Shown in pieces: positions 16,736-64,000 of a stretch of 64,000 nt of DNA. The stretch comes from Acidimicrobiia bacterium. GTDB taxonomy: Bacteria > Actinomycetota > Acidimicrobiia > Spongiisociales > UBA11373. The notes under the pieces were generated by a model that saw nothing but the letters and a program-made list of their open reading frames with translations, made no database searches and was not told the DNA's origin. The stretch's first letter is position 1; each line of letters begins with the position of its first letter. The DNA is taken from NCBI GenBank assembly GCA_046714175.1, contig JBKKBI010000084.1:26284-90283 (forward strand). The letters run 5' to 3'. The position numbers were made by a program, and so were the translations under genes.

Positions 16736-16745
16736 GATGCCCGCC

Positions 16746-19399: not shown

Positions 19400-20748
19400 T
19401 CAATCGCCGGCCTCGGCCAGGCTTTCGGCGAGCGACGGGTGCGCCATCAGCGTGTCCACGAGAACGTCGACACGGATCCGCCCCTGAGCTGCGAGGGCGA
19501 GGATGCCGATCAACTCCGAGGCGTGGTGGCCGACGATGGTTCCCCCCAGCACCACGTGAGTGGCCGGATCGGAGATCAGCTTGGCAAAGCCCGTCGGGTT
19601 GCCCTGGATGAGTGCCCGCGGGTTGGCTGCGAATGGAACTTTGGTGATGCGCACTTTGCGACCCTCCGCCCGAGCATCCACCTCCTCCAGACCCACCGAA
19701 GCGATCTCTGGTTCCGTGAAGATCGCCTGCGACACCTTGGTGAGATCGAGCGGCTTCACGGGTAACCCCAGGGCATGGCGGGCGATCTTCCGTCCCTGCA
19801 TCGCGGCCACCGAGGCGAGAAGCATCTGGCCGGTGACGTCGCCGGCGGCGTAGACATGGGGCAGCGATGTCCGCTGCATCTCGTCGACCACGACGAAACC
19901 CTTCTCAGTCGCGATTCCGGCAGCGTCGAGGCCGAGGCCCTCGGTGTTGGGACGGGACCCGACCGCGAGCAGGGCGTGGCTGGCCACCACCCGGCGCCCA
20001 TCCTCGACGGTTACCACCACGCCGTCGCCATCACGGGCCGCGCTGTCGGCGCGGGCTCCCTTGAGCAGGTGCACGCCGCGCTCGAGGAAGTCCTCCTCCA
20101 GCACTGCTGCCACCTCCGGGTCGCGATGGGGTAGGACCTGCTGGCGACTCACCAGCAGCGACACCTCGGATCCCAGGCTGGCGAAAATGTGCACGAACTC
20201 GACTCCGGTCACACCCGACCCGATCACCACCAGGTGCTTCGGAATCGCCGCAAGGTGATAGGCGTGACGGGTGGTAATGATGTGGGATCCGTCGACTCCG
20301 GCCCACTCAGGTTCCCACGGGCGGGAGCCGGTGGCGATGACCGCAATGTCGAACTCGAGATCCTGACCCGCCGCGACCGCGGTGTGTGGACCGGTGAATT
20401 CTCCGGTGCCAGTAATGATCGCGACGCCCTGGGACTCGAGCAGTTCGCGAATCCCCGACGAGAGCCTGGCGGATATCCCATCGGCGCGCGTCGCGAGCGC
20501 GGCGACGTCCACCGACGGACTGCCGACACCCTCTATCCCCAATAGCGCGGCGCCGCGCAGTGAGTCGAGTCGCAGGGATGTGGCCACCATGGCCTTGGAC
20601 GGGATGCAGTCCAGGAGGTGCGCCGCGCCGCCGAGAATCGTCGATTCCACCACCGTGACGCGGGCGCCATGGATCGCCGCCGCGGGCGCGGCGGCGATCC
20701 CCCCGGGTCCGCCGCCGATGACGAGAACGCGTGGCCCGGAGTCTTCGC

Positions 20749-20752
<4 letters not shown>
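19400..20752 (-). CDS. lpdA: Flavoprotein disulfide reductase family protein, LpdA-like (NAD(P)H quinone reductase type lacking the CxxxxC pair)
   Basis: The internal ATG at 20752 ([18 protein letters not shown]) overlaps the mutase stop (ATGA). It has FAD and NAD Rossmann motifs but only a single Cys in the redox site (LLDCIPSK), as in M. tuberculosis LpdA Rv3303c. The 684-aa listed ORF is an N-terminal artefact that overlaps the upstream gene. Confidence 0.75.
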
Positions 20753-22335
<1,583 letters not shown>

Positions 22336-31027: not shown

Positions 31028-32458
31028 TCATGCCATGCGGCGGGCCAGTTCCACCAGGGTCCGCACCCCGAATCCGGTACCCCCCTTGGTCACGTAGTGC
31101 TCCGCCTCCGCCGCCCGAGCGGGTCCGGCGATATCGAGGTGGGCCCACGGCACCGCACCGACGAACTCCTTGAGCAGCAGCGCCGCGGTGATGGCTCCTC
31201 CGTACTTGTTTCCGGTGTTCTTCATATCGGCAACATCCGAGTCGATGATCTTGCGGTAGTCATCGGGGAGGGGCATCCGCCAAACCCGCTCCCCCGCGGC
31301 TGACGCCGCCGCAGCCACGGCTGCGGTGGCGTCATCGGTCCCGAAAAGTCCGGCGATCTTCTCACCGAGGGCGATCGAGATCGCCCCGGTCAGAGTCGCG
31401 ACGTCAACGATCAGGTCCGGGTTCATTTCGGCCGCCAGCGAGAGCCCATCGGCGAGCACCAGGCGTCCCTCGGCATCGGTGTTGAGGACCTCGATTGTTT
31501 TGCCGTTGCGGGCCTGCAGGACGTCTCCGGGACGGAGCGCCGCACCCCCCGGCATGTTCTCCGTGAGAGGAGCGATGCCCACCACCCGCACCGGTAACCG
31601 CATAGCGGCGATCGTGCGCATGGCGGCGAACACCGCTGCCGCACCCGACATGTCGGTTTTCATCGTTTCCATGCTGTCTGCCGGCTTGAGGGAGAGTCCC
31701 CCGGAATCGAACACGATTCCCTTGCCGACGATGGCGAGGAAGGACTTGGCTCCGGGAGGCTCGTACCGCAACTCCACAAGGCGGGGTGGATTGGTCGCTC
31801 CCAGCGAGACTCCCCGCAAGCCACCCAGGCGTTCGGCGACGATCTCCTTCTCGTCCAGGATGCGGATCGCCATGTCGAATTCGGCGGCGATCGCCGCCGC
31901 CGACTCGGCGAGAACCACCGGGGACTTTCCCATCGCAGGCTCATTGACGAGGTCGCGAGCCAGGTTGACCCCGAATCCAATGAGGGCCCCGGTGGCAGCC
32001 TCTGCGGCGTCTCCAGCCGTGGCGTTCAAAAGAAACACCTCGGCCAGCGCCGAAGGCTTCTTCTCAGATTTGTGCCGCGTGAACGTGTAGGAACCGAGGA
32101 CGAACCCGCTGCCCACGGCTTCGGCGGCACCGGGGGCGGCGTGATGCAGCGTGGTGGCGACAGTGGCGCAGCGCGCCAGACTCCGGGCAGCACTTCCTGC
32201 CGCGCGACGCACCTGCTCGGCGTCCGGGCTGGCCCCGAGACCGACCAGCGCTACGTTGCGATAGGGAACCGCACCACCGCCGGGAACGACCGAGATCTGG
32301 CCGGACTTCCCGGTGAACTCGGCATCATCAAGGTGCGATCTCAGCCACGGCAGTTGTTCAGCCAGGAGCGTGCCGGTCGCGTCGAAGCGCCTCCCTTCCC
32401 CAACCCCGACGACGATGGCCCCGGCCTCGGCGGGAGACCCGGCGCGAAACTCGATCAT
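31028..32458 (-). CDS. pepA: Leucyl aminopeptidase (M17 family, PepA)
   Basis: The NTDAEGRL signature and the VVGKGIVFDSGGLSLKP motif. The start is taken at MIEF (ATG 32458), overlapping the upstream stop (ATGA). Confidence 0.85.
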   Translation of the reverse strand: MIEFRAGSPAEAGAIVVGVGEGRRFDATGTLLAEQLPWLRSHLDDAEFTGKSGQISVVPGGGAVPYRNVALVGLGASPDAEQVRRAAGSAARSLARCATVATTLHHAAPGAAEAVGSGFVLGSYTFTRHKSEKKPSALAEVFLLNATAGDAAEAATGALIGFGVNLARDLVNEPAMGKSPVVLAESAAAIAAEFDMAIRILDEKEIVAERLGGLRGVSLGATNPPRLVELRYEPPGAKSFLAIVGKGIVFDSGGLSLKPADSMETMKTDMSGAAAVFAAMRTIAAMRLPVRVVGIAPLTENMPGGAALRPGDVLQARNGKTIEVLNTDAEGRLVLADGLSLAAEMNPDLIVDVATLTGAISIALGEKIAGLFGTDDATAAVAAAASAAGERVWRMPLPDDYRKIIDSDVADMKNTGNKYGGAITAALLLKEFVGAVPWAHLDIAGPARAAEAEHYVTKGGTGFGVRTLVELARRMA

Positions 32459-33006
32459 CGTGTCTCCTCGGTTCTGCTCGGCACCCATGCCGTCTCGGCG
32501 GATCGCGCCAACATGTACAGGTAGTCCGCCAGCCGGTTGAGATACGAGACGATCAATGAGTCCTCCAGCCCGGCGGCGCGCACGTGGGTGACCGCGCGGC
32601 GCTCGGCGCGGCGCACCACGGTCCGGGCGACATCGAGAGCCGCCGCCAGCGGGTTGCCCCCGGGAACGATGAACTCGGTGGGCATGCCCCGGGCGGCTTC
32701 GATCGCATCGATCGCGGCTTCGAGCCGAACCACCATCTCGGAGGTGACCAGGCTCGTGCCGGCGGTGAGCAGACCGCGCCGCTCCGGCGCAGTCGCAAGC
32801 TCAGCACCGACCACGAAGAGCTCACGTTGTACGGCCAGAATCGCATCGTGGATCTCATCAGAAGCGAGAGCCCGCGCCATCCCCAGAACAGCACATGCCT
32901 CGTCCACGGTCCCGTTCGCCTCCGGTCCGAGGCTGTCCTTCGCCACCCGACCCCCGTGGAACAGGCCCGTCGAACCATCGTCACCGCGGCGCGTATAGAT
33001 CTTCAC
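32455..33006 (-). CDS. pduO: ATP:cob(I)alamin adenosyltransferase, PduO-type (MMAB-like)
   Basis: A GTG start at 33006 gives VKIYTRRGDDGSTGL..., the canonical PduO N-terminus. The 183-aa product is a helical bundle domain. Confidence 0.8.
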   Translation of the reverse strand: MKIYTRRGDDGSTGLFHGGRVAKDSLGPEANGTVDEACAVLGMARALASDEIHDAILAVQRELFVVGAELATAPERRGLLTAGTSLVTSEMVVRLEAAIDAIEAARGMPTEFIVPGGNPLAAALDVARTVVRRAERRAVTHVRAAGLEDSLIVSYLNRLADYLYMLARSAETAWVPSRTEETR

Positions 33007-36813: not shown

Positions 36814-37947
36814 CTACTGCCTCCGCCGCTCCATCCCCTCGTGCGCCTGACGGTGGTGTCTTCTGCACAACAGCACCAAGTTTTCGAGCGAGGTGCTCCC
36901 CCCGTCCACCCAGTGCATGACATGGTGCGCATCGCACCAGTGGTGGGGCCGGGTGCACCCGGGATGCGTACAGCCCTTATCGCGTAGTACCAGAGCTCGA
37001 CGTATGGCGGCCGGGACCGTACGCGTGGAACGGCCTACATCGAGTACCTCGGAACCTCCTTGCATCAGAACTCGACTAACGCCGGCATCACACGCGATCC
37101 GTCTCGCGGTCTCCGGGGAGATCACGGTGCCATCCTCGAGTTCACAGGGTTCCCCGGACCGCTTCTGGAGCACGTCGAGCGACACTGTCACCACCATCGA
37201 TGGCCGTACCCCACCGGTCTCACCCGACTCGCCGTGGGTCAGGTGATCGGAGCACAACTCGATCAAGGCATCGGCGCGCTTCTGTCCCGGTGTGCGCGGG
37301 TCGCCGGTATCGAGGTTGCTGGCCTCGATCAGGGAGCGCAGCGCCGTCATGACCACTCGGCCCCCGGTGGGGTCGAGTTCGCCATCGACACGCACCATGC
37401 CGCCTAGGGTCGGTGAGACCTGAAGGTGCCGGCGCCGGAATAGATGTTCGCGATCGGCGCTCGCTGCCTCAGCATCGACCTGCTGCTTCCAGTACTCAAG
37501 GGCCTGGTGAGTGGCAGCCATGGACTGGCTGGCCGCAGTCTCGACCAGGAGGCCCTGATCGCGCCGAAAGTGATCTGGCGAAACCAGGGACGCCGCCAGG
37601 AGCATTGCAGTCCGAGGTCGATCGATGTCGCCGGCCGCGAATGCTTGACGAACCGAGCTGTATTCGGCCAAACCGCGAGCCTCGGCGACGTTGCGGCGGG
37701 CGGCCCGGCCGGAGTCGCCTACCCGGGACTGCAGAAAGGACTCGGGCGTGAAGTGGTCAGGCTCGAATGATCGCCGGCGGTCGATCTCGGCCAGGGTTCT
37801 CGCCGCCTCGGCTTCGAGGCGAGTCAGCTTCCCCCGCAGTGCGACGTAGCGGTCGTTGAGCTCCGAGTCGCCGATCGACTCGAGTTCGATGAGTTCGTCC
37901 TCCCCGAGTAGCGAACCAGCCGCAGGTCCGCCCAAGAGGGTGGGCAT
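36814..37947 (-). CDS. DUF222 domain HNH endonuclease (REP13E12-family-like)
   Basis: N-terminal DUF222-like region (ALIELCSDHL) and C-terminal HNH (CTHPGCTRPHHWCDAHHVMHWVDGGSTSLENLVLLCRRHH). It is a single gene inserted between pepQ-like and lipBA. Confidence 0.75.
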   Translation of the reverse strand: MPTLLGGPAAGSLLGEDELIELESIGDSELNDRYVALRGKLTRLEAEAARTLAEIDRRRSFEPDHFTPESFLQSRVGDSGRAARRNVAEARGLAEYSSVRQAFAAGDIDRPRTAMLLAASLVSPDHFRRDQGLLVETAASQSMAATHQALEYWKQQVDAEAASADREHLFRRRHLQVSPTLGGMVRVDGELDPTGGRVVMTALRSLIEASNLDTGDPRTPGQKRADALIELCSDHLTHGESGETGGVRPSMVVTVSLDVLQKRSGEPCELEDGTVISPETARRIACDAGVSRVLMQGGSEVLDVGRSTRTVPAAIRRALVLRDKGCTHPGCTRPHHWCDAHHVMHWVDGGSTSLENLVLLCRRHHRQAHEGMERRRQ

Positions 37948-37992
37948 GCCTCAAAACGTATCACTGGCTTGCGACAGAATCGCCCTAAAGCG

Positions 37993-38012
37993 CCCGCGAA
38001 CGGGTCGCGGGG
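37993..38012 (-). terminator. Candidate stem-loop (CCCGCG-N7-CGCGGG) downstream of the lipB-lipA gene
   Basis: An inverted repeat with a 6-bp GC stem read directly. It has no U-tract, so only a weak intrinsic-terminator candidate. Confidence 0.25.
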
Positions 38013-38044
38013 TTCATCAGGATGGAGTCGTTACGGAGGTGCCC

Positions 38045-39685
38045 CTACCGCCGCCCCGCCGCCTCCCGGGCGTGATACGACGACCGGACCAGAGGCCCGC
38101 TCTCGACGTGGCGCAGACCCAGCCCCTCACCGACTTCCTTGTACTCGGCGAACTCCTCTGGAGCCACGTACCGGTCGATCTGGCGGTGCCGCGCGGTCGG
38201 CCGAAGATACTGGCCGATCGTGACGATATCGACGCCGACCGCACGCAGATCGGCGAGCGCGCCAAACACCTCCTCCCGAGTCTCTCCCATGCCCACGATG
38301 AGTCCCGACTTGATCAGCGACTCCGGCCTCATCCCGCGCCCGCGGGCGAGCAGGGCCAGCGAGCGTCCGTAGTTGGCTGCGGTCCGCACCTCGCGCTGCA
38401 GGCGGAGGACCGTCTCGGTGTTGTGATTGAGCACGTCGGGAGCGGCATCCATCACGGTTCGCAGCGCCGCCCGATCCCCCTTGAAGTCGGGAATGAGCAC
38501 TTCCACGTCACAATCGAGTCGCTCCCGAATTTGGCGAATCGTCTCGGCGAAGATCTCCGATCCCCCATCAGCAAGGTCGTCGCGATTCACCGAGGTGAGC
38601 ACGGCGTGCTCCAACCGCATCTCTGTCACCGCCTCAGCGACCCGCTTGGGCTCGTCCCAATCGACTTCGCCAGGCCGTCCGGTGGCGACATCGCAGAACC
38701 CACAAGCCCGAGTGCACACCTCGCCGAGGAGCATGAAGGTCGCGGTGCCGCTCCCCCAACACTCCGAGATGTTGGGACAGGAAGCCTCCTCGCACACGGT
38801 ATTGAGCCGCAGGCCCTGCACCAACCGCTTCACGTCGCGGTACCCCGCCCCGAGATCGAGGCGCACCTTCATCCAGTCCGGCTTCTCGGGCTCGCCGGGA
38901 AGCCGGCCCCTGCGGGCCACGGGGAGTTCCGCGCGCCGCTCCGGAGAGAACGCCCCGCCGGCCACCAACTCATCGATCTCGAACACCGGCAATGCCCGCC
39001 CTGTCCCTCGGGTGAACTCGGCCCGCTGCTCGTCTACCGCTTGGTAGCCGAACTCGGCGGCGAAGCGGGGTACAACGAGTTCGATCACCTCTTCGATGGA
39101 GATGGGCCTGCCGAGCAACTCCACCAGGCTCGTGACCGGCCGATCCGGGATGCCGCAAGGAACGATGTGCTGGAAGTAGCCCAGGTCGGGGGCGACATTG
39201 AGAGCGAACCCGTGGGTGGTGACCCGATGCGATACCCGGACCCCGATCGCGGCCACCTTGCCGTGTTCGGTCCACACCCCGGGAAAGCCTTCGTCTCGCC
39301 AACCCGCCAGCCCGAGATCCGCCATCACTCCGATCAGCACCTCTTCCAGCGTGGCGACGTGAGCCGCCACCGCCGGTCTATCGCCAAGGTGGCGAACGGG
39401 ATAGCCCACCAACTGACCCGGGCCGTGATAGGTGACATCGCCCCCGCGGTCCACCTGGTGTATCTCGGCGCCGACCGAGGCGGCCATTTCCCTCGACACG
39501 AGGAGGTTGGACCCGGAGGAGAATCGGCCGACCGTGTAGACATGGGGATGTTCGAGCAGCAGCAAGTAGTCGTCACCGGTACGGCCCTCGACTCGTCCCT
39601 CGTGAAGCGCCCGCTGCAGATCCCACGCCTCCTCGTACGGGAGGCGGCCCAACCACCGCACCCGCAAGCGCTCGGTTGTCACCAC
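38045..39685 (-). CDS. lipBA: Bifunctional fusion of octanoyltransferase LipB (N-terminal) and lipoyl synthase LipA (C-terminal radical-SAM)
   Basis: A single uninterrupted 546-aa frame. The LipB part has HQVDRGGDVTYHGPGQLVGYP and KVAAIGVRV motifs. The LipA part has the CxxxCxxC cluster CTRACGFC and the auxiliary cluster CEEASCPNISEC. Confidence 0.8.
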   Translation of the reverse strand: MVTTERLRVRWLGRLPYEEAWDLQRALHEGRVEGRTGDDYLLLLEHPHVYTVGRFSSGSNLLVSREMAASVGAEIHQVDRGGDVTYHGPGQLVGYPVRHLGDRPAVAAHVATLEEVLIGVMADLGLAGWRDEGFPGVWTEHGKVAAIGVRVSHRVTTHGFALNVAPDLGYFQHIVPCGIPDRPVTSLVELLGRPISIEEVIELVVPRFAAEFGYQAVDEQRAEFTRGTGRALPVFEIDELVAGGAFSPERRAELPVARRGRLPGEPEKPDWMKVRLDLGAGYRDVKRLVQGLRLNTVCEEASCPNISECWGSGTATFMLLGEVCTRACGFCDVATGRPGEVDWDEPKRVAEAVTEMRLEHAVLTSVNRDDLADGGSEIFAETIRQIRERLDCDVEVLIPDFKGDRAALRTVMDAAPDVLNHNTETVLRLQREVRTAANYGRSLALLARGRGMRPESLIKSGLIVGMGETREEVFGALADLRAVGVDIVTIGQYLRPTARHRQIDRYVAPEEFAEYKEVGEGLGLRHVESGPLVRSSYHAREAAGRR

Positions 39686-39731
39686 GGGCGTGGCAGACCG
39701 GCCACAGCCGGCACCGGAGTGAGTCCGAGTG

Positions 39732-41222
39732 TCACGCCAGCTCCTGCTCCCAGTCCCACGTCTCCAGATTCTGTTTGATCCTGCTCAGGAACTTCACCGC
39801 CGTCGATCCATCGAAGGCCCGATGGTCCCAAGACAGGCCGAGGTACCCGACATGGTGGATGGCAATCGCGTCGTTGCCGTCACGGTCGGTCACCACGATC
39901 GGCCTCTTGACCACGGTATCCGTGGACAGGATTGCCACATTCGGCACGTTGATGATCGGAGCGGACATGAACGACCCGAAGGGTCCCGGGTTGGTGATCG
40001 TGAATGTGGACCCGGCGAGGTCGTCGGGCTCCATCTTCCCGGAGCGGGCCTTCTCGGCGAGACGGCGCACTTCGCGGGCGATGCCGCGCATCCTCAGACC
40101 GTCGGCGCCGCGCATCGTCATCACCAAGAGCCCTTCTTCCTCGAGGTCGACTCCGTAGCCGAGGTTGACCGTTCCATGGAGTATGCGCGCCTTGTTCACC
40201 AGGTCGAGGCTCGAGTTCACCACCGGAAACATGCCGAGCGCGTCGACGACCGCACGGCTGACAAATGGGAGGTAGGTAAGCGAGAAACCCTCCCGCTCCT
40301 TGAACGCGTCGCGGTGACGGCGGCGCACGCGCTCCACCGGCTCGAAGTCGACCTCGACCGACGTCCACACGTGGGCGGCGGTCTGCTTGGCTCGGATCAT
40401 GTTGTCAGCGATCCGAATGCGCAGCCGCGACAGATCCTCGACGCGATCACCTCCCCCGGTGTGCATCGTCGCCGCGGTCTGGGGCGCCGGTGCCACCGCG
40501 GGGGGCGACGCCACGGTCGGCTGGGACGGGGTGAACATGGCGTGCTCAGCCGGCTTGTCGACGATCAAATCCGAGATACCGCGACCCAATACGGTGCGAG
40601 GGGGTTCGCCCCCGACTGCCTCCAGAGGTCCCGGGGCGGAGGCGATGAACGCTTCCAGGTCACGCCGGGTGATGCGACCGTCGGTCCCGGTGCCAGCCAC
40701 CCGCGCCAGATCCACGCCGTGCTCGATGGCGAGACGGCGCACCACCGGCGACAGCATCCCGACTTCCGCCCCGGCCGTGGCAGGCACGCCGGTGGGTACC
40801 ACTGTTGCCGGCGGGGGGCTTACGGCCTGCAGTACCGCCTGGGGCGGCTCGGCTGGCTGCGGCTCGGCCGGCTGCGGCTCGGCTGGCTGCGGAACCGTCG
40901 CCTGTGGGGCGGCCGCGGGAGCAGCGGGGGGGACCGGGGATGCAGCCACCGCGGGAACAGGCGCCGCCGCTCCGCCGGCCTCACCAGGCTGTCCGATGAC
41001 GACCAATGGGGTGCCGACAGCGACGGTCGCCCCCTCAGGAACCAAGATCTCAAGAATGGTCCCCGCCACCGGCGACGGCACCTCGGTGTCGACCTTGTCG
41101 GTCGAGATCTCGAGAAGGACCTCGTCTTCGCGAATGGTGTCTCCCGGCTGCTTCGACCACTTGAGGATCGTGCCTTCCGTGACCGTCTCGCCGAGCTGAG
41201 GCATGGTGACCGTAAGGGACAT
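39732..41222 (-). CDS. Dihydrolipoamide acyltransferase E2 component of a 2-oxoacid dehydrogenase complex
   Basis: Lipoyl domain (EISTDKVD), a Pro/Ala/Glu-rich linker with a QPAEP x3 repeat, the E3-binding domain, and the catalytic domain with DHR motif (SWDHRAFDG). Confidence 0.9.
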   Translation of the reverse strand: MSLTVTMPQLGETVTEGTILKWSKQPGDTIREDEVLLEISTDKVDTEVPSPVAGTILEILVPEGATVAVGTPLVVIGQPGEAGGAAAPVPAVAASPVPPAAPAAAPQATVPQPAEPQPAEPQPAEPPQAVLQAVSPPPATVVPTGVPATAGAEVGMLSPVVRRLAIEHGVDLARVAGTGTDGRITRRDLEAFIASAPGPLEAVGGEPPRTVLGRGISDLIVDKPAEHAMFTPSQPTVASPPAVAPAPQTAATMHTGGGDRVEDLSRLRIRIADNMIRAKQTAAHVWTSVEVDFEPVERVRRRHRDAFKEREGFSLTYLPFVSRAVVDALGMFPVVNSSLDLVNKARILHGTVNLGYGVDLEEEGLLVMTMRGADGLRMRGIAREVRRLAEKARSGKMEPDDLAGSTFTITNPGPFGSFMSAPIINVPNVAILSTDTVVKRPIVVTDRDGNDAIAIHHVGYLGLSWDHRAFDGSTAVKFLSRIKQNLETWDWEQELA

Positions 41223-41234
41223 GGGTTGATTCTC

Positions 41235-43229
41235 CTACAACGCGGCGAGTTTGTTTACGGCAGCGACCACCTGGTCGACCTGCGGGACAAAGGCATCCTC
41301 GAGGATCGGGGAAAACGGAATGTGAGTATGCGGCGGGGTCACTCGAATGATTGGCCCATCGAGGTCCCAAAAAGCCTCGGCTGCAACTCGGGCGGCCACT
41401 TCGGAGGCGACCGAGGCGAAGGGCACATCTTCTTGCACGACCACCAGGCGTGACGTCTTGACCACCGAGGCAAAGACGGCCTCCCAATCGAGGGGCACGA
41501 TCGTCTGCAGGTCGATGATCTCCACGGAAACGTCCTCCGCCTCGAGAAGCCCGGCGGCTTCGAGTGAGGTGTGCACCATGGCACCCCAGGTGACGATGGT
41601 GACGTCGTCGCCGACCCGAGCCACCCGCGCCTTGCCCAGCGGCAGCTCGTAACTCCCCGGCGGGAGCGGCTCCTTGATGCTGCGGTAGAGCTTCTTGTGC
41701 TCGAGGAACACCACCGGATTGGGATCGCGGATCGCGGCCACCAGCAGCCCTTTGGCCGCGGTCGGGGTGCTGGGTACCACGACCTTGACGCCGGGATGGT
41801 GCGCCAGCATTCCCTCCGGGCTGATCGAGTGGAACGGTCCGGCGCGCAACCCGGCTCCGCTGGGCCCCCGAACGACGATCGGCACCGAGTGCCGCGCCTT
41901 CCACAGGTACTTGGCGGCCTCGTTGAACAGTTGATCGAGACCGGGGTAGATGAAGTCGGTGTACTGCAACTCCGCCACAGGTCGTTGTCCCATGAGGGCC
42001 GCTCCCACGGCTCCCCCGATGATCCCCGACTCTGCGATCGGGGTGTCGATCACTCGATTGGGTCCGTACTTCTCGAAGAGACCCTTGGTGACCTTGAATG
42101 CGCCTCCAAACGACCCGACATCCTCTCCCAACAAGAAAACGCGATCGTCACGATCCATCTCCTCGTCGAGCGCCAGGGTGATGGCATCGAGCAGAGTCAC
42201 CGGCTCCCCCGCTGGCTCTCCGGGCTCTGGTCCGGTGAAGGTAGCTGGAGCAAACAGGTCGAGATGAACGTCTGCGGCGACTGGATCGGCCTGCGTCTGC
42301 GCCCACTCGATCGTGGTGCGGATCTTCTCCTCAAGACGATCGTGAACCGCTTGGCGTTGCGCCTCATCGAGCAAACCGCGGGAGGTCAAGTACTCCTCGA
42401 AGCGCGGCAACGGATCGCGCGCCATCCACGCCTCGCGCTCATCGGGTTTCACGTATTCAGCGGAATCGTGACCGGCGTGTCCAAAGTGACGGAAGGTGAC
42501 GGCCTCGATCAGCGTGGGGCCTTCGCCCCGTCGCGCCCGCTCCACCGCCTCGCGTGCCACGGCGTAACACTCGAGGACGTCGTTGCCATCGATGACGACA
42601 CCGGGGATGCCGTATCCGTCGGCGCGGTGTCCGGAGTAGGCGAGACGGAACTGGCCGTCGTTGGGAGTCGAGTATGCGTATTGGTTGTTCTGGATCGTGA
42701 AGACGATCGGTAATTGCAGGACTGCGGCCATGTTGACCGCCTCGTGCCAGGTGCCAGTTGCGGTCGACCCCTCACCGCAATCCGCCAGGGCTACCCGTCG
42801 TTCGCCGCGCTGTTTGAACGCCAGCGCCGCCCCCATGGCGACCGGGTAGGCGTCGGGAAGCGGAGAGATCACCATGAGCGTGCCCTTCTCCAACACGCCA
42901 AAGTGGCTGTTGCCATCGCGACCCTTGCTCGGTCCCGACGCCTTTCCGTAGAAGTTGAGCATCGCCTCCTCGAGCGTGACTCCCTTGGTCAGTTGGGCCA
43001 GGAGGTCGCGATGAGTCGGTCCGAATATGTCGCCGGGTTCCAGTGCCGAAATCAACCCGACCTGAGCCGCCTCCTGGCCAACCCCCGGATAGACCGCGCC
43101 GGGGAGACGCCCGCCGCGGTACATGTTGTGCAGACGGGTCTCGAGCAGCCGACCGGTCATCATGAGCTCGTACATCGCCATGAGCTGGGCCGGCGAGAGC
43201 TCAGCGGCGTGTCCCCGGGCCTCGATCAC
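41235..43229 (-). CDS. 2-oxoacid dehydrogenase E1 component, fused alpha and beta subunits (TPP-dependent)
   Basis: At 664 aa, the N-terminal half has E1-alpha TPP-binding motifs (GDG...N) and the C-terminal half is an E1-beta transketolase-like domain. Confidence 0.85.
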   Translation of the reverse strand: MIEARGHAAELSPAQLMAMYELMMTGRLLETRLHNMYRGGRLPGAVYPGVGQEAAQVGLISALEPGDIFGPTHRDLLAQLTKGVTLEEAMLNFYGKASGPSKGRDGNSHFGVLEKGTLMVISPLPDAYPVAMGAALAFKQRGERRVALADCGEGSTATGTWHEAVNMAAVLQLPIVFTIQNNQYAYSTPNDGQFRLAYSGHRADGYGIPGVVIDGNDVLECYAVAREAVERARRGEGPTLIEAVTFRHFGHAGHDSAEYVKPDEREAWMARDPLPRFEEYLTSRGLLDEAQRQAVHDRLEEKIRTTIEWAQTQADPVAADVHLDLFAPATFTGPEPGEPAGEPVTLLDAITLALDEEMDRDDRVFLLGEDVGSFGGAFKVTKGLFEKYGPNRVIDTPIAESGIIGGAVGAALMGQRPVAELQYTDFIYPGLDQLFNEAAKYLWKARHSVPIVVRGPSGAGLRAGPFHSISPEGMLAHHPGVKVVVPSTPTAAKGLLVAAIRDPNPVVFLEHKKLYRSIKEPLPPGSYELPLGKARVARVGDDVTIVTWGAMVHTSLEAAGLLEAEDVSVEIIDLQTIVPLDWEAVFASVVKTSRLVVVQEDVPFASVASEVAARVAAEAFWDLDGPIIRVTPPHTHIPFSPILEDAFVPQVDQVVAAVNKLAAL

Positions 43230-43274
43230 GATCGATCCCCCCTCACATCCGTCCCTCGGTGCGCACCAGCCATG

Positions 43275-44642
43275 TCAGTGCAGGCTCCGCCCCGATGCCG
43301 CCAACAACGACTCCCCGATCGCTTCGGAAAGTGTGGGATGGGCGTGAATGAACGCCGCGGCCTCGGAAGGAAGCGCCTCCCACCCGACCGCATACATCAG
43401 CTCGTGGATCAACTCCCCCGCCTGCGGACCGACGACCGTTGCCCCGAGAATGGGCCCGCCTCGCTCGGAGACGATCTTCACCAGACCCTGCGCCTGACCC
43501 TTGATGATGGCCCGGCCCACGCCTGCCATCCCGTGATCGTGGGTCACCACATCGTGTCCCGCGGCGCGCGCCTGAGCCTCGGTGAGGCCCACCGACGCCA
43601 CTTCGGGAAGGGAGTAGACGACTAGCGGAATCGCCCGGTACTCGACCGGGGCCGCCGTCCCGGTGGCGATGTGCGTGATAGCGGCGATACCCTCGGCGAA
43701 TCCGGCGTGAGCCAGCTGCGGGGTACCCGCCACGATGTCTCCGACGGCATAGATTCCGGGGGCATCTGTGAGCATGGTGCGTCGGTCGGCGATCACGTAT
43801 CCGCGGTCGAGGCGAACGCCCGCTTCCTCCAATCCGATCCCGCTGGTCACCGGTGCCCGGCCCACCGCCACCAGCACCACATCGACTTCGACCGCAACTC
43901 CCCCGGCCGAAACGGTCACGCCCGACGGCCCGATCACCGGGGGCTCGACCGCGGCCCCGGTGGTAATTCCGATGCCCTTCTTCGCCAGGATCCGGGCGAG
44001 CAGCTTGGCGGCCTCGGGTTCGGCCCCGGGGAGGATCTGGTCGAAGACTTCAAACACATGTACCTGGCTACCCAACTCGGCGAGGTAGCAGGCGAACTCG
44101 ATTCCGATCGCGCCGCCGCCGATCACCGCGACCCGACGCGGCTGGGCGTGCCAATCCAAGCCGTGATCCGAGGTGACAATGCGTACCCCGTCGGGTTCGT
44201 ATCCCGGGATGCTGCGCGGCACCGAGCCCGTGGCCACGATCACCTTGCGTGCTTCGAGGCGTCGTGGGGTCTCACCGGCCACGTCCACGATCCCCGGGCC
44301 GGACACGCGGCCCGTTCCCGCCACGATCTCCACCTTGCGCTGTTTGAGGAGGCCGAGCAGGCCTTTGTGCAGCTGGCCGACGACGGCGTCCTTGTGCTGG
44401 CGGGCGCGGTCCCAATCGACCGAGGGAGCGGAGACGATCACCCCTGCGTGGGCGGCATGCGCCACCTCGGCGAACACCTCGGCGGTGTGGATCCACGCCT
44501 TGGCCGGAATGCAACCCCGGTGCAGGCAGGTCCCGCCAATATCGGCTCGTTCGACCAGGACGACGGAGAGTCCAAAGTTGTGGGCGTAGAGCGCAGCGGC
44601 GTAGCCCCCGGGCCCACCGCCAATGATCGCGACGTCGTGCAA
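43275..44642 (-). CDS. lpd: Dihydrolipoyl dehydrogenase (E3, Lpd)
   Basis: The GGGPGGY FAD motif, the redox-active GGTCLHRGCIPAK disulfide, and the interface His/Glu near the C-terminus. Confidence 0.9.
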   Translation of the reverse strand: MHDVAIIGGGPGGYAAALYAHNFGLSVVLVERADIGGTCLHRGCIPAKAWIHTAEVFAEVAHAAHAGVIVSAPSVDWDRARQHKDAVVGQLHKGLLGLLKQRKVEIVAGTGRVSGPGIVDVAGETPRRLEARKVIVATGSVPRSIPGYEPDGVRIVTSDHGLDWHAQPRRVAVIGGGAIGIEFACYLAELGSQVHVFEVFDQILPGAEPEAAKLLARILAKKGIGITTGAAVEPPVIGPSGVTVSAGGVAVEVDVVLVAVGRAPVTSGIGLEEAGVRLDRGYVIADRRTMLTDAPGIYAVGDIVAGTPQLAHAGFAEGIAAITHIATGTAAPVEYRAIPLVVYSLPEVASVGLTEAQARAAGHDVVTHDHGMAGVGRAIIKGQAQGLVKIVSERGGPILGATVVGPQAGELIHELMYAVGWEALPSEAAAFIHAHPTLSEAIGESLLAASGRSLH

Positions 44643-44743
44643 CAGCCCTCCAGTCGGTGCCGCCAGAGCCTAGAGCCTCGCCGGTTGCGGAACCAGGGAC
44701 CATTCGTCGGACTGCCGCCGGCCGCGGGTACCCTCGCCGGGCC

Positions 44744-44836
44744 ATGCAAACCCGCTACCTGCTCGTGGCCGCTCTGATCACCGCTCTGGTGATCCTGGCC
44801 GCATCCCTGGTCTGGTTTCTCCGGGTCGGGACGTGA
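44744..44836 (+). CDS. Possible small hydrophobic peptide (30 aa, MQTRYLLVAALITALVILAASLVWFLRVGT)
   Basis: A short ORF read directly, missed by the 60-aa cutoff. Its stop overlaps the GTG start of the downstream hydrolase. Confidence 0.2.
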   Translation: MQTRYLLVAALITALVILAASLVWFLRVGT

Positions 44837-45477
44837 TCACCACCTCAGACGGGATCAGCCTCGAGTCACTGTGGGATGAGCCTGCCGGCGAACCCGAGGG
44901 GTGCGTGGTGCTGTGCCACCCCCATCCGCTCGATGGCGGCACCATGAATGCCCCGCTCATGCGAATGGTGGCGGCGACACTGGCAGCATCCGGTCTATGG
45001 GTGCTGCGATTCAACTTTCGCGGGGTGGGACTCTCCCAAGGTGAATGGGGCGTCGGCCGTGGCGAGGTGTCCGATGTCGCTGCGGCAGTCGCTGCGGCCG
45101 GGGAGACCCGGCCTGGCCTGCCGATGGGCGTCGCCGGCTGGTCGTTCGGTGCCTCCACCTCGCTCCGCTGGCAGGCGGAGTCCGGATCGACCTTGCCTTG
45201 GGCGGGGATCGCACCCGGGATTCAGACCTACCGCGACGCCGAGCCTCCCGATGTCACCAGACTTGCTCCGGCGCCGCGACTGATCGTCCATGGCGACCGG
45301 GACCAATTCGCCTCCCCCGCCGCGATGGCTGAGTTCGCCTCCTCATTCGGGGCCCGCCTGGAGGTTCTCCGGGGTTCCGACCACTTCTTTGTGTTCCGGG
45401 GGCGGCGGGTGGGGGCTCTGGTGGCGGCGCACTTTGGAGGTCGCCCGGTGGACCCCGACGGCGGCGCTCAGACTTGA
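44833..45477 (+). CDS. Alpha/beta hydrolase fold protein
   Basis: A 214-aa protein with the nucleophile elbow GWSFGAS and a C-terminal HGDRDQF...DHFF catalytic His region. The start codon is GTG. Confidence 0.65.
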   Translation: MITTSDGISLESLWDEPAGEPEGCVVLCHPHPLDGGTMNAPLMRMVAATLAASGLWVLRFNFRGVGLSQGEWGVGRGEVSDVAAAVAAAGETRPGLPMGVAGWSFGASTSLRWQAESGSTLPWAGIAPGIQTYRDAEPPDVTRLAPAPRLIVHGDRDQFASPAAMAEFASSFGARLEVLRGSDHFFVFRGRRVGALVAAHFGGRPVDPDGGAQT

Positions 45478-46125: not shown

Positions 46126-47765
<1,640 letters not shown>

Positions 47766-47769
<4 letters not shown>

Positions 47770-48044
47770 CCTGGCTCCTCTGGAGTCGGACCCACCGTAA
47801 CCGGGGATCCGCAGTTGGGACACGGGGCCACTGCCACTGCACCGACGATGAACGAAAACCCACATCGCGGGCAGGCGATGCGCGGCGACGGAGCCTCGGG
47901 GATCGGCGTCGGTGGCGGTGAGGCGGGGGCGATCGGTTCCGCCGCGGCACGCACGTCGTTCACCGTCCCGCAGACCGGGCAGGAGTGCCGGCCCGGGCCG
48001 GGAACGTCGAAGTTGGAGCGGCACCGCCCACAGCGGACGATCAT
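47766..48044 (-). CDS. Small double zinc-ribbon protein (92 aa, four CxxC pairs)
   Basis: CGRC...CPVCG and CPRCG...CPNCG motifs, translationally coupled (ATGA and GTGA overlaps) between a membrane-anchored protein gene and the mutase gene. Confidence 0.5.
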
Positions 48045-48454
48045 CCGGGTTCCTCGTCGGCCGGAGCGCCCACCGCACCAATGGAGACCAGGTAATCGAC
48101 ATCGGCCGCGATCACCTCAGCGATGTCGCGAGCCTCGACGTCGATCTCATTTTCCACGGCACGCTGCAGGATGTGATCGATCGCGTCGCCACTGCCCAGG
48201 ATCGCGCGCTGTCCCGCGCGCGGCGCGACTACCTGCTGGTATTCGATCTGCCACTCGAGAATCCGTCGCACCAGGCTTGTCCTCACGCGCAACGCGGTGG
48301 CGGGTTCGAGTCCGGCGTGGGCGAATCGGGCAGCGTCATCGAGCACATAAACCGGATCTGCGTCCCGGCGCCGCCGCCACCCCTGCCAGGTGAAGGCGAG
48401 AACGATCATCCCGAGGACCAAGACGAGGATCGAGCCACCAACCAGGGCACTCAT
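48041..48454 (-). CDS. Hypothetical membrane-anchored protein (137 aa)
   Basis: An N-terminal TM helix followed by a soluble domain. It is the first gene of the three-gene coupled set. Confidence 0.45.
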   Translation of the reverse strand: MSALVGGSILVLVLGMIVLAFTWQGWRRRRDADPVYVLDDAARFAHAGLEPATALRVRTSLVRRILEWQIEYQQVVAPRAGQRAILGSGDAIDHILQRAVENEIDVEARDIAEVIAADVDYLVSIGAVGAPADEEPG

Positions 48455-51625: not shown

Positions 51626-51821
51626 CAAGCACCGCTCCCACCTACCCGCAAGGGGATTTCCGGTTGCCGGTTTCCAGTTGCCGGGTCTTGGCAGTGGGCG
51701 CACCTCGGCGCGGCTCTCGCCCATCTCTCGTCGGCCATCGCCACGCGTCCGGCGAGTTCTGCATTGCGCATTGTGAATGGCGCCCGGTCACTGCCATTGG
51801 ACTGTCGCGCCAGGTGGCAGC

Positions 51822-53054
51822 GTGAAGACCGACCTCTCCCACCTCCGCGCCGACTTCCCCATCCTGAGCCGCGAGGTCAACGGCAAGCCGCTCGTCTATT
51901 TGGACAGCGCCGCCACGACCCAGAAGCCGTTACAGGTCCTCGAGGCGATGGATGACTACTACCGATTGCACAACGCCAACGTTCACCGCGGCGCCTACCG
52001 CCTGGCGGAGGAGGCGACCGGGCTGTACGAAGGAGCCCGGAACAAGGTGGCCCGGTTCATCAACGCCGCCGCGCCCGAAGAGCTGGTGTTTACCCGCGGT
52101 ACCACTTCCAGCATCAATGCCATCGCCTACGGCTGGGGGTTGTATCACCTGCGGCCGGGGGATCGCATCGTCCTCACCACAATGGAGCACCACGCCAACA
52201 TCGTGCCGTGGCAACTGATCACCCGCCACACCGGTGCCGAGCTGGTCTATCTGCCGTTGGGTGTGGACTTTCTGGTCGACGTCTCCGCGCTGGACGCCAT
52301 CGTCGATGAGAGGGTGAAGATCGTCGCCGTTTCCGGAATGTCGAACGTCCTCGGGTCGATCGGTCCGCTCACCGCCGCGGTGGCGGCGGCCCGTGCTGTG
52401 GGGGCAATAACTGTTGTCGATGCCGCCCAGCTTGTCCCGCACCATCCCACCGACGTGCAGGCGCTAGGCGCCGATTTCGTCGCCTTCAGCGCTCACAAGA
52501 TGCTGGGGCCCACCGGCATCGGGGCGCTGTGGGGCAGGCGCGATCGACTGGAGGAGATGGAACCCGCCGAAGGCGGCGGAGAGATGATTCGCGACGTACA
52601 ACTCCATGCCTCGACATGGGCCGACCTCCCCCACAAGTTCGAAGCAGGAACCCCCCCGATCGCCGAGGCGGTGGGCTTCGGAGCAGCCGTGGACTATCTC
52701 GCGGCCGTCGGAATGGACAATGTGCGTCGCCACGAGCAGGAACTCACCCGCTATGCGCTCGATCGGTTGGCGGAGATCCCCGACCTCAAGGTCTACGGTC
52801 CCACCGACACCGCGCTCCGCGGGGGCGCCGTCTCATTCACGCTGGCGGACATCCATCCCCACGATCTGGCGACGATCCTCGACCAGGAAGGCGTGGCGGT
52901 GCGGGCAGGTCACCACTGCGCCAAGCCGCTGATGCGGCACCTCGATGTCGCGGCAACTGCCCGCGCCTCGTTCTACATGTACAACGTGCCGGAGGAAGTG
53001 GACATCCTGGTAAAGGCACTGCATGAGGCGAGGAGGCTGTTCGGTGTCGCTTGA
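51822..53054 (+). CDS. sufS: Cysteine desulfurase SufS (class V aminotransferase, group II)
   Basis: YLDSAATTQKP, the PLP-Lys region SAHKMLGPTGIG, and the active-site Cys in HHCAKP. GTG start at 51822. Confidence 0.85.
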   Translation: MKTDLSHLRADFPILSREVNGKPLVYLDSAATTQKPLQVLEAMDDYYRLHNANVHRGAYRLAEEATGLYEGARNKVARFINAAAPEELVFTRGTTSSINAIAYGWGLYHLRPGDRIVLTTMEHHANIVPWQLITRHTGAELVYLPLGVDFLVDVSALDAIVDERVKIVAVSGMSNVLGSIGPLTAAVAAARAVGAITVVDAAQLVPHHPTDVQALGADFVAFSAHKMLGPTGIGALWGRRDRLEEMEPAEGGGEMIRDVQLHASTWADLPHKFEAGTPPIAEAVGFGAAVDYLAAVGMDNVRRHEQELTRYALDRLAEIPDLKVYGPTDTALRGGAVSFTLADIHPHDLATILDQEGVAVRAGHHCAKPLMRHLDVAATARASFYMYNVPEEVDILVKALHEARRLFGVA

Positions 53055-62607: not shown

Positions 62608-64000
62608 TCAGCCGACCGAACCCTCCATCTGCAACTCGATCAACCGATTGAGCTCAACCGCGTACTCCATGGGGAGCTCTTTCACTATCGGCTCGATGAA
62701 GCCGGCGACGATCATGGCGGTGGCCTGTTGGTCGGTGAGACCGCGGCTCATCAGATAGAACAACTGGTCGTCGCCGACCTTGGACACCGTCGCCTCGTGC
62801 GCGATCTGGGCGTCGGCCTCTTCGATCTCCATGTAGGGATAGGTGTCGGAGCGGCTCTTGTCGTCGAGGATCAAGGCATCACAACGCACGAACGACTTGA
62901 CCTCCTCGGCTCCGCTCTCCACCCGAACCAGGCCGCGGTAGCCACCGCGTCCTCCGTCCTTGGAAATCGACTTGGAGGTGATCAGGGACGTGGTGCGCGG
63001 GGCGGCGTGAACGATCTTGGCCCCGGCATCGAGATGCTGGCCCTTGCCGGCAAACGCGATCGAAAGCACCTCGCCATGCGCCCCCTCTTCCATGAGCCAT
63101 ACCGCCGGATACTTCATCGTGAGCTTGGAGCCGAGGTTGCCGTCGATCCACTCCATGGTGGCGTTGCGATAAGCCGCGGCACGCTTGGTGACGAGGTTAT
63201 AGACGTTGTTCGACCAGTTCTGAATCGTCGTGTAGCGGCAACGACCGCCCGCCTTGACCACGATCTCGACCACCGCAGAGTGCAGCGAGTCGCTGGAATA
63301 GGTCGGGGCTGAGCACCCTTCGACGTAGTGGCAGAAGGCCCCTTCATCGACGATGATCAGCGTGCGCTCGAATTGCCCCATGTTCTCGGCGTTGATCCGG
63401 AAGTAAGCCTGCAGGGGCTGATCGACGTGGACTCCAGGCGGCACGTAGATGAACGATCCGCCCGACCAGACCGCCGAGTTGAGGGCGGCAAACTTGTTGT
63501 CGTTCGGAGGAATGATCGTTCCGAAGTATTGACGCACCAAGTCGGGGTACTCACGGACCGCGGTGTCCATGTCGCAGAACAAGACGCCAAGTTCGGCGAG
63601 GTCCTCGCGGTTGCGGTGGTAGACCACCTCCGACTCGTACTGGGCGGTGACGCCCGCAAGGTACTTGCGTTCCGCCTCCGGGATTCCCAGCTTCTCGTAA
63701 GTGTTCTTGATCGACTCCGGGACCATGTCCCAGTCCTTTACCTGCCCCGCGGTCGGCTTGATGTAGTAGTAGATGTCGTCGAAGTCGATGTCGACCAGCG
63801 ATCCGCCCCCGCCCCACAGAGGGATCGGCTTGCGGAGAAAGCGCTGATACGACTTGAGTCGGAAGGCGAGCATCCACTCGGGCTCGCCCTTCATCGCCGA
63901 CATCTCGCGGATGATCGACTCGTTGAGCCCCTTCTTGGGCTTGAAAACGTAATCCTCGACGTCGGACCACCCCAGCTGGTATTTCCCGATGTCGATGTCG
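62608..64000 (-). CDS. sufB: Fe-S cluster assembly protein SufB; 5' end lies outside the window
   Basis: [19 protein letters not shown]...IDFDDIYYY and a full SufB core. The frame stays open to the 3' window edge (upstream codons ...[32 protein letters not shown]). Confidence 0.9.

Follow-up and report, generated by a model that had tools for sequence, protein, structure and literature searches.

An octanoyltransferase and a lipoyl synthase in one reading frame within a 2-oxoacid dehydrogenase operon of Acidimicrobiia

De novo lipoylation, as in E. coli and M. tuberculosis, is carried out by separate LipB and LipA proteins. We take the gene neighbourhoods of the two enzymes to be pepB (Rv2213), dlaT (Rv2215), lipB (Rv2217) and lipA (Rv2218) in M. 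tuberculosis, and aceF-lipB-lipA in C. glutamicum. Another arrangement of separate genes is that of an Alicyclobacillaceae locus (L040), where the complex and both lipoylation enzymes are clustered as lpd-E1alpha-E1beta-E2-lipA-lipB. A fusion that involves LipA is represented in NCBIfam by NF053790 ('LplA_LipA_fuse', a bifunctional lipoate-protein ligase and lipoyl synthase), in which a domain of the LplA/LipB superfamily is joined to a C-terminal LipA. Of fusions, a 2023 survey of lipoate assembly in PLoS Biology covers those of LplA and LplB alone (PMC10332631), and a full-text search that had most subscription journals outside its reach found no literature describing a LipB-LipA fusion.

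The locus described here lies in a window of 64,000 nucleotides (the whole stretch of DNA that was analysed) from an Acidimicrobiia bacterium. Its open reading frame list holds four closely packed genes on the minus strand, for Lpd, a fused E1 alpha/beta, E2 and a fused LipB-LipA protein (lipBA), with gaps of 45, 12 and 46 nt between lpd and E1, E1 and E2, and E2 and lipBA. The gene order lpd-E1-E2-lipBA and both fusions, proposed in a sequence-only reading of this DNA, are borne out by the reading frames and by the Pfam and NCBIfam domains:

43275..44642, minus strand: lpd, dihydrolipoyl dehydrogenase (E3), first gene of the operon, 455 aa; TIGR01350, with Pyr_redox_2 and Pyr_redox_dim domains
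41235..43229, minus strand: E1, alpha and beta subunits in one chain, 664 aa
about 42291-43163, minus strand: alpha part of E1, within the 664-aa reading frame
about 41268-42200, minus strand: beta part of E1, within the 664-aa reading frame
39732..41222, minus strand: E2, dihydrolipoamide acyltransferase, 496 aa
40995-41213, minus strand: lipoyl domain of E2, with target lysine K43 at 41094-41096
38045..39685, minus strand: lipBA, octanoyltransferase and lipoyl synthase in a single reading frame, 546 aa
44643..44832, no strand: presumed operon promoter region, intergenic, between lpd and a divergent alpha/beta-hydrolase gene

The start codons of lpd (TTG) and lipBA (GTG) are uncertain; the NCBI copy of lipBA (P0002) is 100% identical and 8 residues shorter. 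As in the actinobacterial neighbourhoods, E2 is followed by the lipB and lipA parts on the same strand, but here these two are fused, lpd is part of the cluster and, in the subclade of the window, so is a heterotetramer-type fused E1. The Alicyclobacillaceae locus, by contrast, has no fused genes, with E1 split and lipA ahead of lipB. We consider it very probable that the window carries a four-gene operon of the Acidimicrobiia whose bifunctional lipBA makes the lipoyl cofactor in place, and that this gene arose by loss of the lipB stop codon.

The 546-aa protein divides as follows:

39041..39679, minus strand: LipB domain, octanoyl-ACP:protein N-octanoyltransferase, residues 3-215
38888..39040, minus strand: linker, residues 216-266
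38999..39016, minus strand: linker motif F224-T-R-G-T-G229 (F-x-R-G-x-G), defined by conservation
38057..38887, minus strand: LipA domain, radical-SAM lipoyl synthase, residues 267-543

Both halves score above equivalog cut-offs. The LipB half (residues 3-215) reaches 208.3 bits with NF010925 (cut-off 155) and 142.2 bits with TIGR00214 (cut-off 83.55), PF21948 (LplA-B_cat) spans residues 16-208, and the half aligns to the LipB structures 2qhs and 1w66, the latter presumably that of M. tuberculosis. The LipA half reaches 350.1 bits with TIGR00510 (cut-off 310.25; residues 267-542), 404.6 bits with NF004019 (cut-off 203) and 288 bits against the structure 5exi, one of a set (5exi-5exk) that we take to be LipA of M. 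tuberculosis. Within LipB, K143 and C177 lie in motifs (K-[VI]-[AC]-A-[IL]-G for the lysine, PCG for the cysteine) that align with the same motifs in 1w66 and 2qhs, and from the LipB literature we assume these residues to be the catalytic Cys/Lys dyad, with the cysteine as the acyl-thioester residue. Within LipA, the auxiliary-cluster motif CX4CX5C (C298, C303, C309), the radical-SAM motif CX3CX2C (C324, C328, C331) and the C-terminal R534-S-S-Y537 with the RSSY serine ligand are all present.

It is conceivable that only one domain is active and that the other, without catalysis, serves to dock the lipoyl domain, as fused enzymes sometimes retain degenerate partner domains. However, K143, C177, the six LipA cysteines and R534-S535-S536 are invariant, and Y537 is at least 90% conserved, across 22 diverse fusions (alignment A1, 41-77% identity). 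Together with the equivalog scores of both halves, this makes a dead domain very improbable. The proposal that both steps of de novo lipoylation are encoded in a single polypeptide is supported by complete LipB and LipA equivalog matches in one stop-free frame, and octanoyl transfer by LipB and SAM-dependent sulfur insertion by LipA would both take place on this one polypeptide in vivo. The catalytic domains, the active-site residues and the order of action on the lipoyl-domain lysine are those of the canonical enzymes; what differs is the single 546-aa chain, the joining of tail to leader and the lineage-specific F-x-R-G-x-G motif in the linker. Membership in NF053790 was rejected, since only the LipA half matches that model (364.3 bits against a cut-off of 800, profile positions 331-605 only). 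The N-terminal domain of the window protein is a LipB octanoyltransferase rather than an ATP-dependent LplA ligase, and NCBIfam holds no model that matches the fusion across both domains.

Could the fusion be an artefact of sequencing or assembly, that is, a missed stop codon or a frameshift joining lipB to lipA? Indel errors do occur in high-GC MAG assemblies, and the sequence-only reading had itself named a stop codon or frameshift around codons 230-250 as the result that would refute it. Direct reading of the junction DNA reveals no stop and no change of frame. Moreover, in a database of 5.8 billion proteins drawn from the assemblies of NCBI, JGI, ENA and Logan, each of the best 120 clusters of relatives (66-100% identity) has both domains at full length, in about 545 aa. 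The architecture recurs in every one of 120 clusters from a clade at 48% identity, and more than 240 clusters from independent assemblies share it. The frame through lipB-lipA is also stop-free in 15 loci of species-representative genomes, and linker length is constant in 118 relatives. An artefact is effectively refuted.

The linker itself, residues 216-266, corresponds to the C-terminal tail of LipB joined straight to the N-terminal leader of LipA. In 118 of the 120 clusters the LipB 'PCG' and the LipA 'CPN' are separated by 123-132 residues in a nearly gapless alignment, and among unfused adjacent lipB and lipA genes the same interval amounts to 104-178 codon-equivalents (116-127 in L019, L022 and L023). 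Since the spacing in the fusions is that of the unfused pairs, nothing more than the disappearance of the stop codon of lipB is needed to account for how the fusion began. Over the 118 relatives mean identity is 59% in the linker, 69% in LipB and 80% in LipA. G227 of the linker motif is invariant and F224 and R226 are at least 90% conserved in the close-family alignment (A2), and the 48%-identical clade has F244, G247 and G249 without exception at the matching positions. F-x-R-G-x-G occurs in four further fused loci (L004, L006, L009, L013); it is absent from four others (L008, L014, L016, L021), as it is from each of the nine unfused junctions that were compared. Across phyla the linker ranges from almost nothing to about 80 aa and has no common sequence.

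A continuous reading frame may still yield two proteins, either from an internal start of LipA or by cleavage in the linker. M272, at least 90% conserved in the close family, is situated where the LipA core begins, and parts of the linker are modelled with moderate or low confidence. However, M272 falls within a conserved LipA motif, KPxW[LMI]K, and its position is taken by L, F or V in other fusions and by isoleucine in 5exi; M272 thus does not qualify as a conserved start. There is no clear ribosome-binding sequence upstream of M272, and the loss of the stop has been kept in hundreds of lineages. We regard this scenario as improbable.

The fusion had been thought unusual, which does not hold: it is standard across the sampled Acidimicrobiia and recurs in other phyla. 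In a sample of species-representative genomes, fused genes are found in the loci labelled Acidimicrobiia, in three MAGs labelled unclassified or Actinomycetota and in one Anaerolineae MAG. Among these, all 14 loci that grouped with the window gene, under the labels Acidimicrobiia, Acidimicrobiales, Acidimicrobiaceae, Ilumatobacteraceae, Actinomycetota or unclassified, are fused. Sumerlaeota have further LipB-LipA fusions and Oligoflexia have them in reverse order, and at 50% identity the database holds at least 71 clusters with LipB before LipA and at least 7 with LipA before LipB. The names given for homologous clusters were those of MAGs or were absent, with no named isolate among them. The statement that other actinobacteria keep lipB and lipA adjacent but separate, in the order lipB then lipA, is true in our sample of Streptomyces (L025-L028), Nocardioides (L024), Solirubrobacteraceae (L023) and Actinomycetota MAGs (L019, L022).

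The surroundings of the fused gene are conserved in part. The core is lpd-E2-lipBA, and E2 lies directly upstream of lipBA in nearly all fused loci of Acidimicrobiia; in L001 and L003 the two genes share 4 nt, where E2 stops and lipBA starts. E1 is inside the cluster only among the closest relatives of the window. The description of the operon as self-contained therefore applies to the window and these relatives and fails for the more distant fused loci, where E1 is not in the cluster.

How might such a gene have arisen and what would it do? Most likely, the stop codon of lipB was lost in an ancestral E2-lipB-lipA cluster, and the fusion would then have been fixed across the Acidimicrobiia, with similar fusions appearing independently elsewhere. 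The LipB domain is predicted to load octanoate from octanoyl-ACP onto Cys177 and to hand it on to the E2 lipoyl domain at Lys43, upon which the LipA domain would insert sulfur at C6 and C8, drawing on two clusters of its own, the radical-SAM one and an auxiliary [4Fe-4S] one. The benefit may lie in the equal amounts and the closeness of two enzymes that act in turn on one protein-bound substrate, and it is possible that the fusion channels octanoyl-E2. In many genomes without the fusion, lipB and lipA share a frame and one stop codon is all that divides them (L018-L020, L023-L029, L032). The excess of such pairs was considered as a biological signal, for example of readthrough, and set aside: a lone in-frame stop does not interrupt a tblastn alignment, which ranks these loci highest, so that an ascertainment bias is the probable cause.

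These in-frame pairs illustrate how easily a fusion can originate, as only one mutation is needed. They are also an argument for a rival scenario, in which the fusion is real but neutral, a stop loss kept because it is harmless and ensures co-expression, with neither channelling nor cooperation between the domains. The repeated origin in both orders, the variable linker across phyla with its lack of a common sequence and the disorder of the linker in the model of the second clade all fit a neutral fusion. However, within the Acidimicrobiia the linker is fixed in length and its identity of 59% compares with 69% for LipB, F-x-R-G-x-G is common to clades that are 48% identical and found in no unfused junction examined, and the whole class retains the fusion with no reversal. 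The AlphaFold model of the window protein (pLDDT 84.9, pTM 0.88; linker with pLDDT 62-69 and two short helices) also speaks against a neutral fusion. That of the 48%-identical clade is poor throughout (pLDDT 59.9, pTM 0.52, linker below 50) because the alignment is shallow, and as the pTM of 0.88 is not repeated there, the placement of LipB relative to LipA in the window model is to be read as tentative. On balance, we see neutrality as a serious contender that falls somewhat short of being the probable outcome.

A more ambitious scenario is a structurally coupled lipoyl assembly module, in which the linker and its F-x-R-G-x-G motif position both active sites so that a single docking of the E2 lipoyl domain serves octanoylation and, with no release in between, sulfuration, while translation coupled to that of E2 lets the complex be lipoylated during its assembly. 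We hold this to be rather unlikely. If true, it would show a cofactor being assembled processively, in nature, on the protein that carries it and would be a ready system for structures of the hand-off from LipB to LipA.

The complex served by the favoured bifunctional lipBA appears, from its domains and motifs, to be a lipoamide-dependent 2-oxoacid dehydrogenase of the PDH/BCKDH class. Lpd exceeds the equivalog cut-off of TIGR01350 (444.6 bits against 408.8) and carries the redox-active C39-LHRG-C44 and a C-terminal H435-PTLS-E440. E1 combines E1_dh (23-313), Transket_pyr (344-516) and Transketolase_C (532-654) Pfam domains in one reading frame, and its alpha and beta halves correspond to two different chains in the solved E1 heterotetramers of PDH and BCKDH. 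This fusion, too, had been called unusual, but all three domains are fused in 120 of the 120 closest E1 clusters, for which NCBI routinely uses names such as 'dehydrogenase E1 component subunit alpha/beta'. The fused E1 that NCBI names 'alpha-ketoacid dehydrogenase subunit alpha/beta' likewise has the identical three-domain architecture in one chain, with no notable difference. The thiamine-diphosphate motif, usually GDG, reads GEG-x27-NN at residue 152, with GEG in all 120 relatives. E2 has a single lipoyl domain (Biotin_lipoyl, 4-76), followed by a Pro/Ala-rich linker, an E3-binding domain (E3_binding, 157-190) and a catalytic domain (2-oxoacid_dh, 259-489), with TDKV at residue 41 (K43) and DHRAFDG at residue 466.

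Family and structure scores do not separate PDH from BCKDH. E2 scores below every NCBIfam equivalog cut-off; its best solved relative is 9y7v_D, a 553-aa PDH E2 (360 bits), with 3duf_I second (223 bits), and it also resembles the catalytic cores 6zzi-6zzm, which along with 9y7v we group with actinobacterial E2. For the beta half of E1, NF006667 (PDH E1-beta subfamily) is the only model whose cut-off is exceeded (329.5 bits against 321), and the alpha half stays under the PDH cut-offs (272.8 against 411) and ranks the '2-oxo acid dehydrogenase' 1um9_A (183 bits) above the PDH 1w85_A (159) and the BCKDH 1dtw_A (156). JGI names the E1 relatives '2-oxoisovalerate dehydrogenase'.

The fusion is real, but a modestly interesting variant of a textbook pathway. 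It leaves the known chemistry of lipoylation unchanged, and since all its parts are textbook a specialist would be only mildly surprised. Its value is elsewhere. A natural covalent LipB-LipA pair throughout a class and in other phyla, in both orders, is evidence of the 'Rosetta-stone' type for two enzymes that operate close together, and it offers biochemistry a single-chain system in which to study whether handover of the octanoyl-lipoyl domain is direct. There is also a consequence for annotation. The source names listed for the fusions are all 'lipoyl synthase' or 'lipoic acid synthetase', apart from one truncated fragment named LipB, so automated metabolic reconstructions of Acidimicrobiia may score lipB as missing and predict a false lipoate auxotrophy.

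Outside the genes, there was no Rfam family in the whole 64 kb, and terminator-like matches within 37700-45000 did not exceed the shuffle expectation. The interval 44643..44832 is the sole sizeable non-coding gap at the edges of the operon and is presumed to be its promoter region, although it holds no match to the sigma-70 consensus. As a further likeness to the actinobacterial E2-lipB-lipA neighbourhood, a gene for an M17 aminopeptidase lies close by, at 31028-32488.

The minus-strand operon described in the sequence-only reading, running from lpd through an alpha/beta-fused E1 and an E2 to a LipB-LipA gene, was found exactly where that reading had placed it when the ORFs were assigned with Pfam and NCBIfam profiles:

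43275-44642, minus strand: lpd, dihydrolipoyl dehydrogenase, 455 aa (TIGR01350, 444.6 bits vs a cut-off of 408.8)
41235-43229, minus strand: E1, 664 aa, with E1_dh (23-313), Transket_pyr (344-516) and Transketolase_C (532-654) in one chain
39732-41222, minus strand: E2, 496 aa, one lipoyl domain, an E3-binding domain and a catalytic domain
38045-39685, minus strand: lipBA, 546 aa, LipB by NF010925 (3-215) and TIGR00214, LipA by TIGR00510 (267-542)

The four ORFs are co-directional, with gaps of 45, 12 and 46 nt in the ORF listing, and encode textbook LipB, LipA, E1, E2 and E3 parts. Lpd has its C39-x4-C44 disulfide and H-x4-E pair, and E2 its lipoylation target lysine (K43, in TDKV) and the catalytic motif DHRAFDG. 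In lipBA, a complete LipB is followed by a complete LipA, the NF010925, TIGR00214 and TIGR00510 matches each exceeding the curated cut-off.

The proposed covalent fusion is real; the interpretation attached to it is partly supported, direct channelling of octanoyl-E2 to sulfur insertion being a possible consequence. The junction DNA in the window, read directly, contains neither a stop nor a change of frame, and both domains occur together in all of the 120 best clusters from a 5.8-billion-protein database with sources in NCBI, JGI, ENA and Logan assemblies. These clusters, two-domain proteins of ~545 aa at 66-100% identity, rule out an assembly artefact and, as independent assemblies that are likewise fused, answer the concern that a stop or frameshift lies hidden between the two parts. 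The spacing from the LipB PCG motif to the LipA CPN motif is 123-132 residues, with alignment gaps nearly nil, in 118 of the 120. A second clade of Acidimicrobiia fusions, sharing just 48% identity with the window protein, is fused in 120 of its 120 best clusters, certain of which hold hundreds of member sequences.

In an alignment of 22 diverse fusions (41-77% identity), K143 and C177 of LipB, the auxiliary-cluster cysteines C298, C303 and C309 of LipA, the radical-SAM cysteines C324, C328 and C331, and R534-S535-S536 are invariant, and Y537 is conserved at a level of at least 90%; a motif check found all these catalytic and cluster motifs in the window protein as well. The LipB half aligns to solved LipB structures (2qhs, 1w66) and the LipA half to solved LipA structures (5exi, 8tsk, 4u0o).

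Across phyla, the linker between the two domains ranges from near zero to ~80 residues in the same alignment and has no common sequence. Within the Acidimicrobiia its length is constant and its mean identity to the window is 59% (69% for the LipB domain, 80% for LipA) and, to judge from this conservation, it is constrained there. One linker motif is common to the window clade and the second clade, bridging fusions of such low mutual identity:

38999-39016, minus strand: F-[TSA]-R-G-x-G, residues F224-G229 of the fusion

It is present in fused loci L004, L006, L009 and L013 and in the protein P0406, and was found neither in fused loci L008, L014, L016 and L021 nor in any of nine unfused lipB/lipA junctions examined. 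An AlphaFold2 model of the window fusion from a 63-sequence alignment (pLDDT 84.9, pTM 0.88) gives the linker two short helices at pLDDT 62-69, and its high pTM hints that the two domains may adopt a defined arrangement. The second-clade model, built from a shallower alignment, is poor throughout (pLDDT 59.9, pTM 0.52) and therefore does not corroborate such an arrangement.

The sequence-only reading regarded the fusion as an unusual architecture and called for a database search of its taxonomic spread. That search returned many fusions, from Acidimicrobiia and other phyla, and the architecture proved to be a class-wide trait, typical of the Acidimicrobiia and recurrent elsewhere, rather than a peculiarity of the window genome. 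We searched 1.84 billion 50%-identity representatives exhaustively with HMMER and sorted the best 150 matches by BLAST against both halves: 71 have LipB ahead of LipA (some being fragments), 7 have the reverse order, and 69 are LipA-only and 3 LipB-only. By source name, the fusions come from Acidimicrobiia, Candidatus Sumerlaeota (P0133) and Oligoflexia (P0198, reverse order). In a size-capped sample of GTDB species-representative genomes, whose taxon labels are MAG labels except for isolates, we asked of each locus whether one stop-free frame spans both halves, and this was so at 15 loci. Fourteen of these (L004-L011, L013-L016, L031, L037) have labels that include Acidimicrobiia, Acidimicrobiales, Acidimicrobiaceae, Acidimicrobium and Ilumatobacteraceae as well as 'Actinomycetota', 'Actinomycetes bacterium' and plain 'bacterium'; the other, L021, belongs to an Anaerolineae MAG, apparently an independent event in Chloroflexota. 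Adjacent yet separate genes occur in four Streptomyces, Nocardioides, Solirubrobacteraceae and two Actinomycetota MAGs, so the earlier statement that most actinobacteria keep lipB and lipA apart holds in this sample; the same state is found in Eremiobacterota, Vulcanimicrobiota, Chloroflexus, Verrucomicrobiota, Rhodanobacter and others. That fusions occur in both domain orders and in widely scattered phyla implies that LipB and LipA fused several times independently.

How such a fusion could arise is apparent from unfused genes. In alignments to solved structures, standalone LipB ends ~20 residues past its last conserved block and standalone LipA has ~35 residues ahead of its KPxW motif; the window linker (216-266) is about as long as this tail and leader together. 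At unfused adjacent loci, counting through the intergenic spacer, the PCG-to-CPN distance is 104-178 codon-equivalents, with 116-127 for L019, L022 and L023, actinobacterial MAGs from outside the Acidimicrobiia, against 123-132 in the window clade. Many unfused pairs (L018, L019, L020, L023-L029, L032) are in frame with one stop codon between them, and thus one point mutation suffices to fuse the two genes. Such pairs are probably enriched through ascertainment, since one in-frame stop does not interrupt a tblastn alignment.

The nearest recognised fusion family is NF053790, 'bifunctional lipoate-protein ligase/lipoyl synthase', but the window protein is not a member, as it scores 364 bits vs a cut-off of 800 and matches with its LipA half alone. 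The NCBIfam scan yielded no model covering both domains. Among the fusion proteins sampled, each source name reads either 'lipoyl synthase' or 'lipoic acid synthetase', the sole exception being a truncated fragment called LipB, and no description of a LipB-LipA fusion was found in full-text literature, whose coverage is incomplete, so that this absence is not proof. The window fusion, uncharacterised and under-annotated, varies the architecture of a well-known pathway; it is of practical value for annotation and, as a single-chain system, useful to biochemists.

The operon had also been called self-contained, which is true of the window and of L001 (lipBA 78% identical) and L007, all with the order lpd-E1ab-E2-lipBA, but not of more distant fused loci (L003, L006, L008, L011, L013-L016, L031, L037), where the cluster is lpd-E2-lipBA without E1. 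The conserved core is therefore lpd-E2-lipBA, and the E1-containing operon is a subclade feature. Clustering of the complex with lipoylation enzymes is not unique to this lineage, since an Alicyclobacillaceae MAG (Firmicutes; L040, 1-6555) has lpd-E1alpha-E1beta-E2-lipA-lipB, every gene separate. In the Anaerolineae locus L021 (598-4334), an E2-like gene is followed by lpd and then the fused lipBA. In L001 and L003, the end of E2 and the beginning of lipBA share 4 nt, an overlap suggestive of translational coupling, while in the window 46 nt separate the two genes. The next gene downstream of lipBA in the window encodes a DUF222 + HNH endonuclease (36814-37947, minus strand). Since syntenic L001 has a Pyridoxal_deC-family gene at that place, on the opposite strand, the endonuclease gene is apparently of mobile type and inserted specifically in this lineage. 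An M17 leucyl aminopeptidase gene (31028-32488, minus strand) lies ~5.5 kb beyond lipBA. In Mycobacterium, Corynebacterium and Streptomyces the cluster of E2, lipB and lipA has pepB/pepA as its neighbour, so the window gene may be left over from an ancestral actinobacterial gene order.

The E1 alpha/beta fusion, likewise thought unusual, turned out to be common: all of the 120 best relatives are fused, and most NCBI-named ones are routinely called 'dehydrogenase E1 component subunit alpha/beta'. The two E1 halves reach similar scores with PDH and with branched-chain enzyme structures, and the JGI label on E1 relatives is '2-oxoisovalerate dehydrogenase'. E2 matches the 553-aa PDH E2 chain 9y7v most closely (360 bits; next match 223 bits) and is also close to the 6zzi-6zzm cores, all presumably of the actinobacterial DlaT/AceF type. 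The canonical thiamine-diphosphate motif is GDG; in E1, motif reading gives:

42681-42773, minus strand: GEG-x27-NN, residues 152-183

GEG is found in 120 of the 120 closest E1 relatives (P0286-P0405), as GEGA in 97 and GEGS in 23.

Elsewhere in the 64-kb window, Rfam gave no family at gathering score, with no tRNA, riboswitch or small RNA detected, and NCBIfam gave no match at an E-value of 1e-10 or better for the large ORFs 243-2417, 3675-5039, 5003-7786, 12271-13770 and 15122-16828. Three further genes touch on the pathway or resemble its parts:

51777-53054, plus strand: SufS cysteine desulfurase (TIGR01979, 579 bits)
62608-63903, minus strand: SufB (TIGR01980, 682 bits)
19400-20740, minus strand: a second flavoprotein disulfide reductase resembling Lpd, within the listed ORF 19400-21454

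SufS and SufB supply Fe-S clusters, and LipA consumes its auxiliary cluster; their genes lie apart from each other and outside the operon. The second reductase best matches NF005883, 'NAD(P)H-quinone dehydrogenase' (456.5 bits, slightly below the cut-off of 479), and scores 376 bits with TIGR01350; the listed 684-aa ORF extends too far upstream. The reductase gene directly follows a methylmalonyl-CoA-mutase N-domain gene (20749-22335, minus strand), one of two paralogues of that family in the window. The other (46126-48102, minus strand) is upstream of the operon, as in L001, and is syntenic in L001 and L003. It is only 545-546 aa long there, and the 658-aa window ORF therefore probably starts ~110 codons further downstream.
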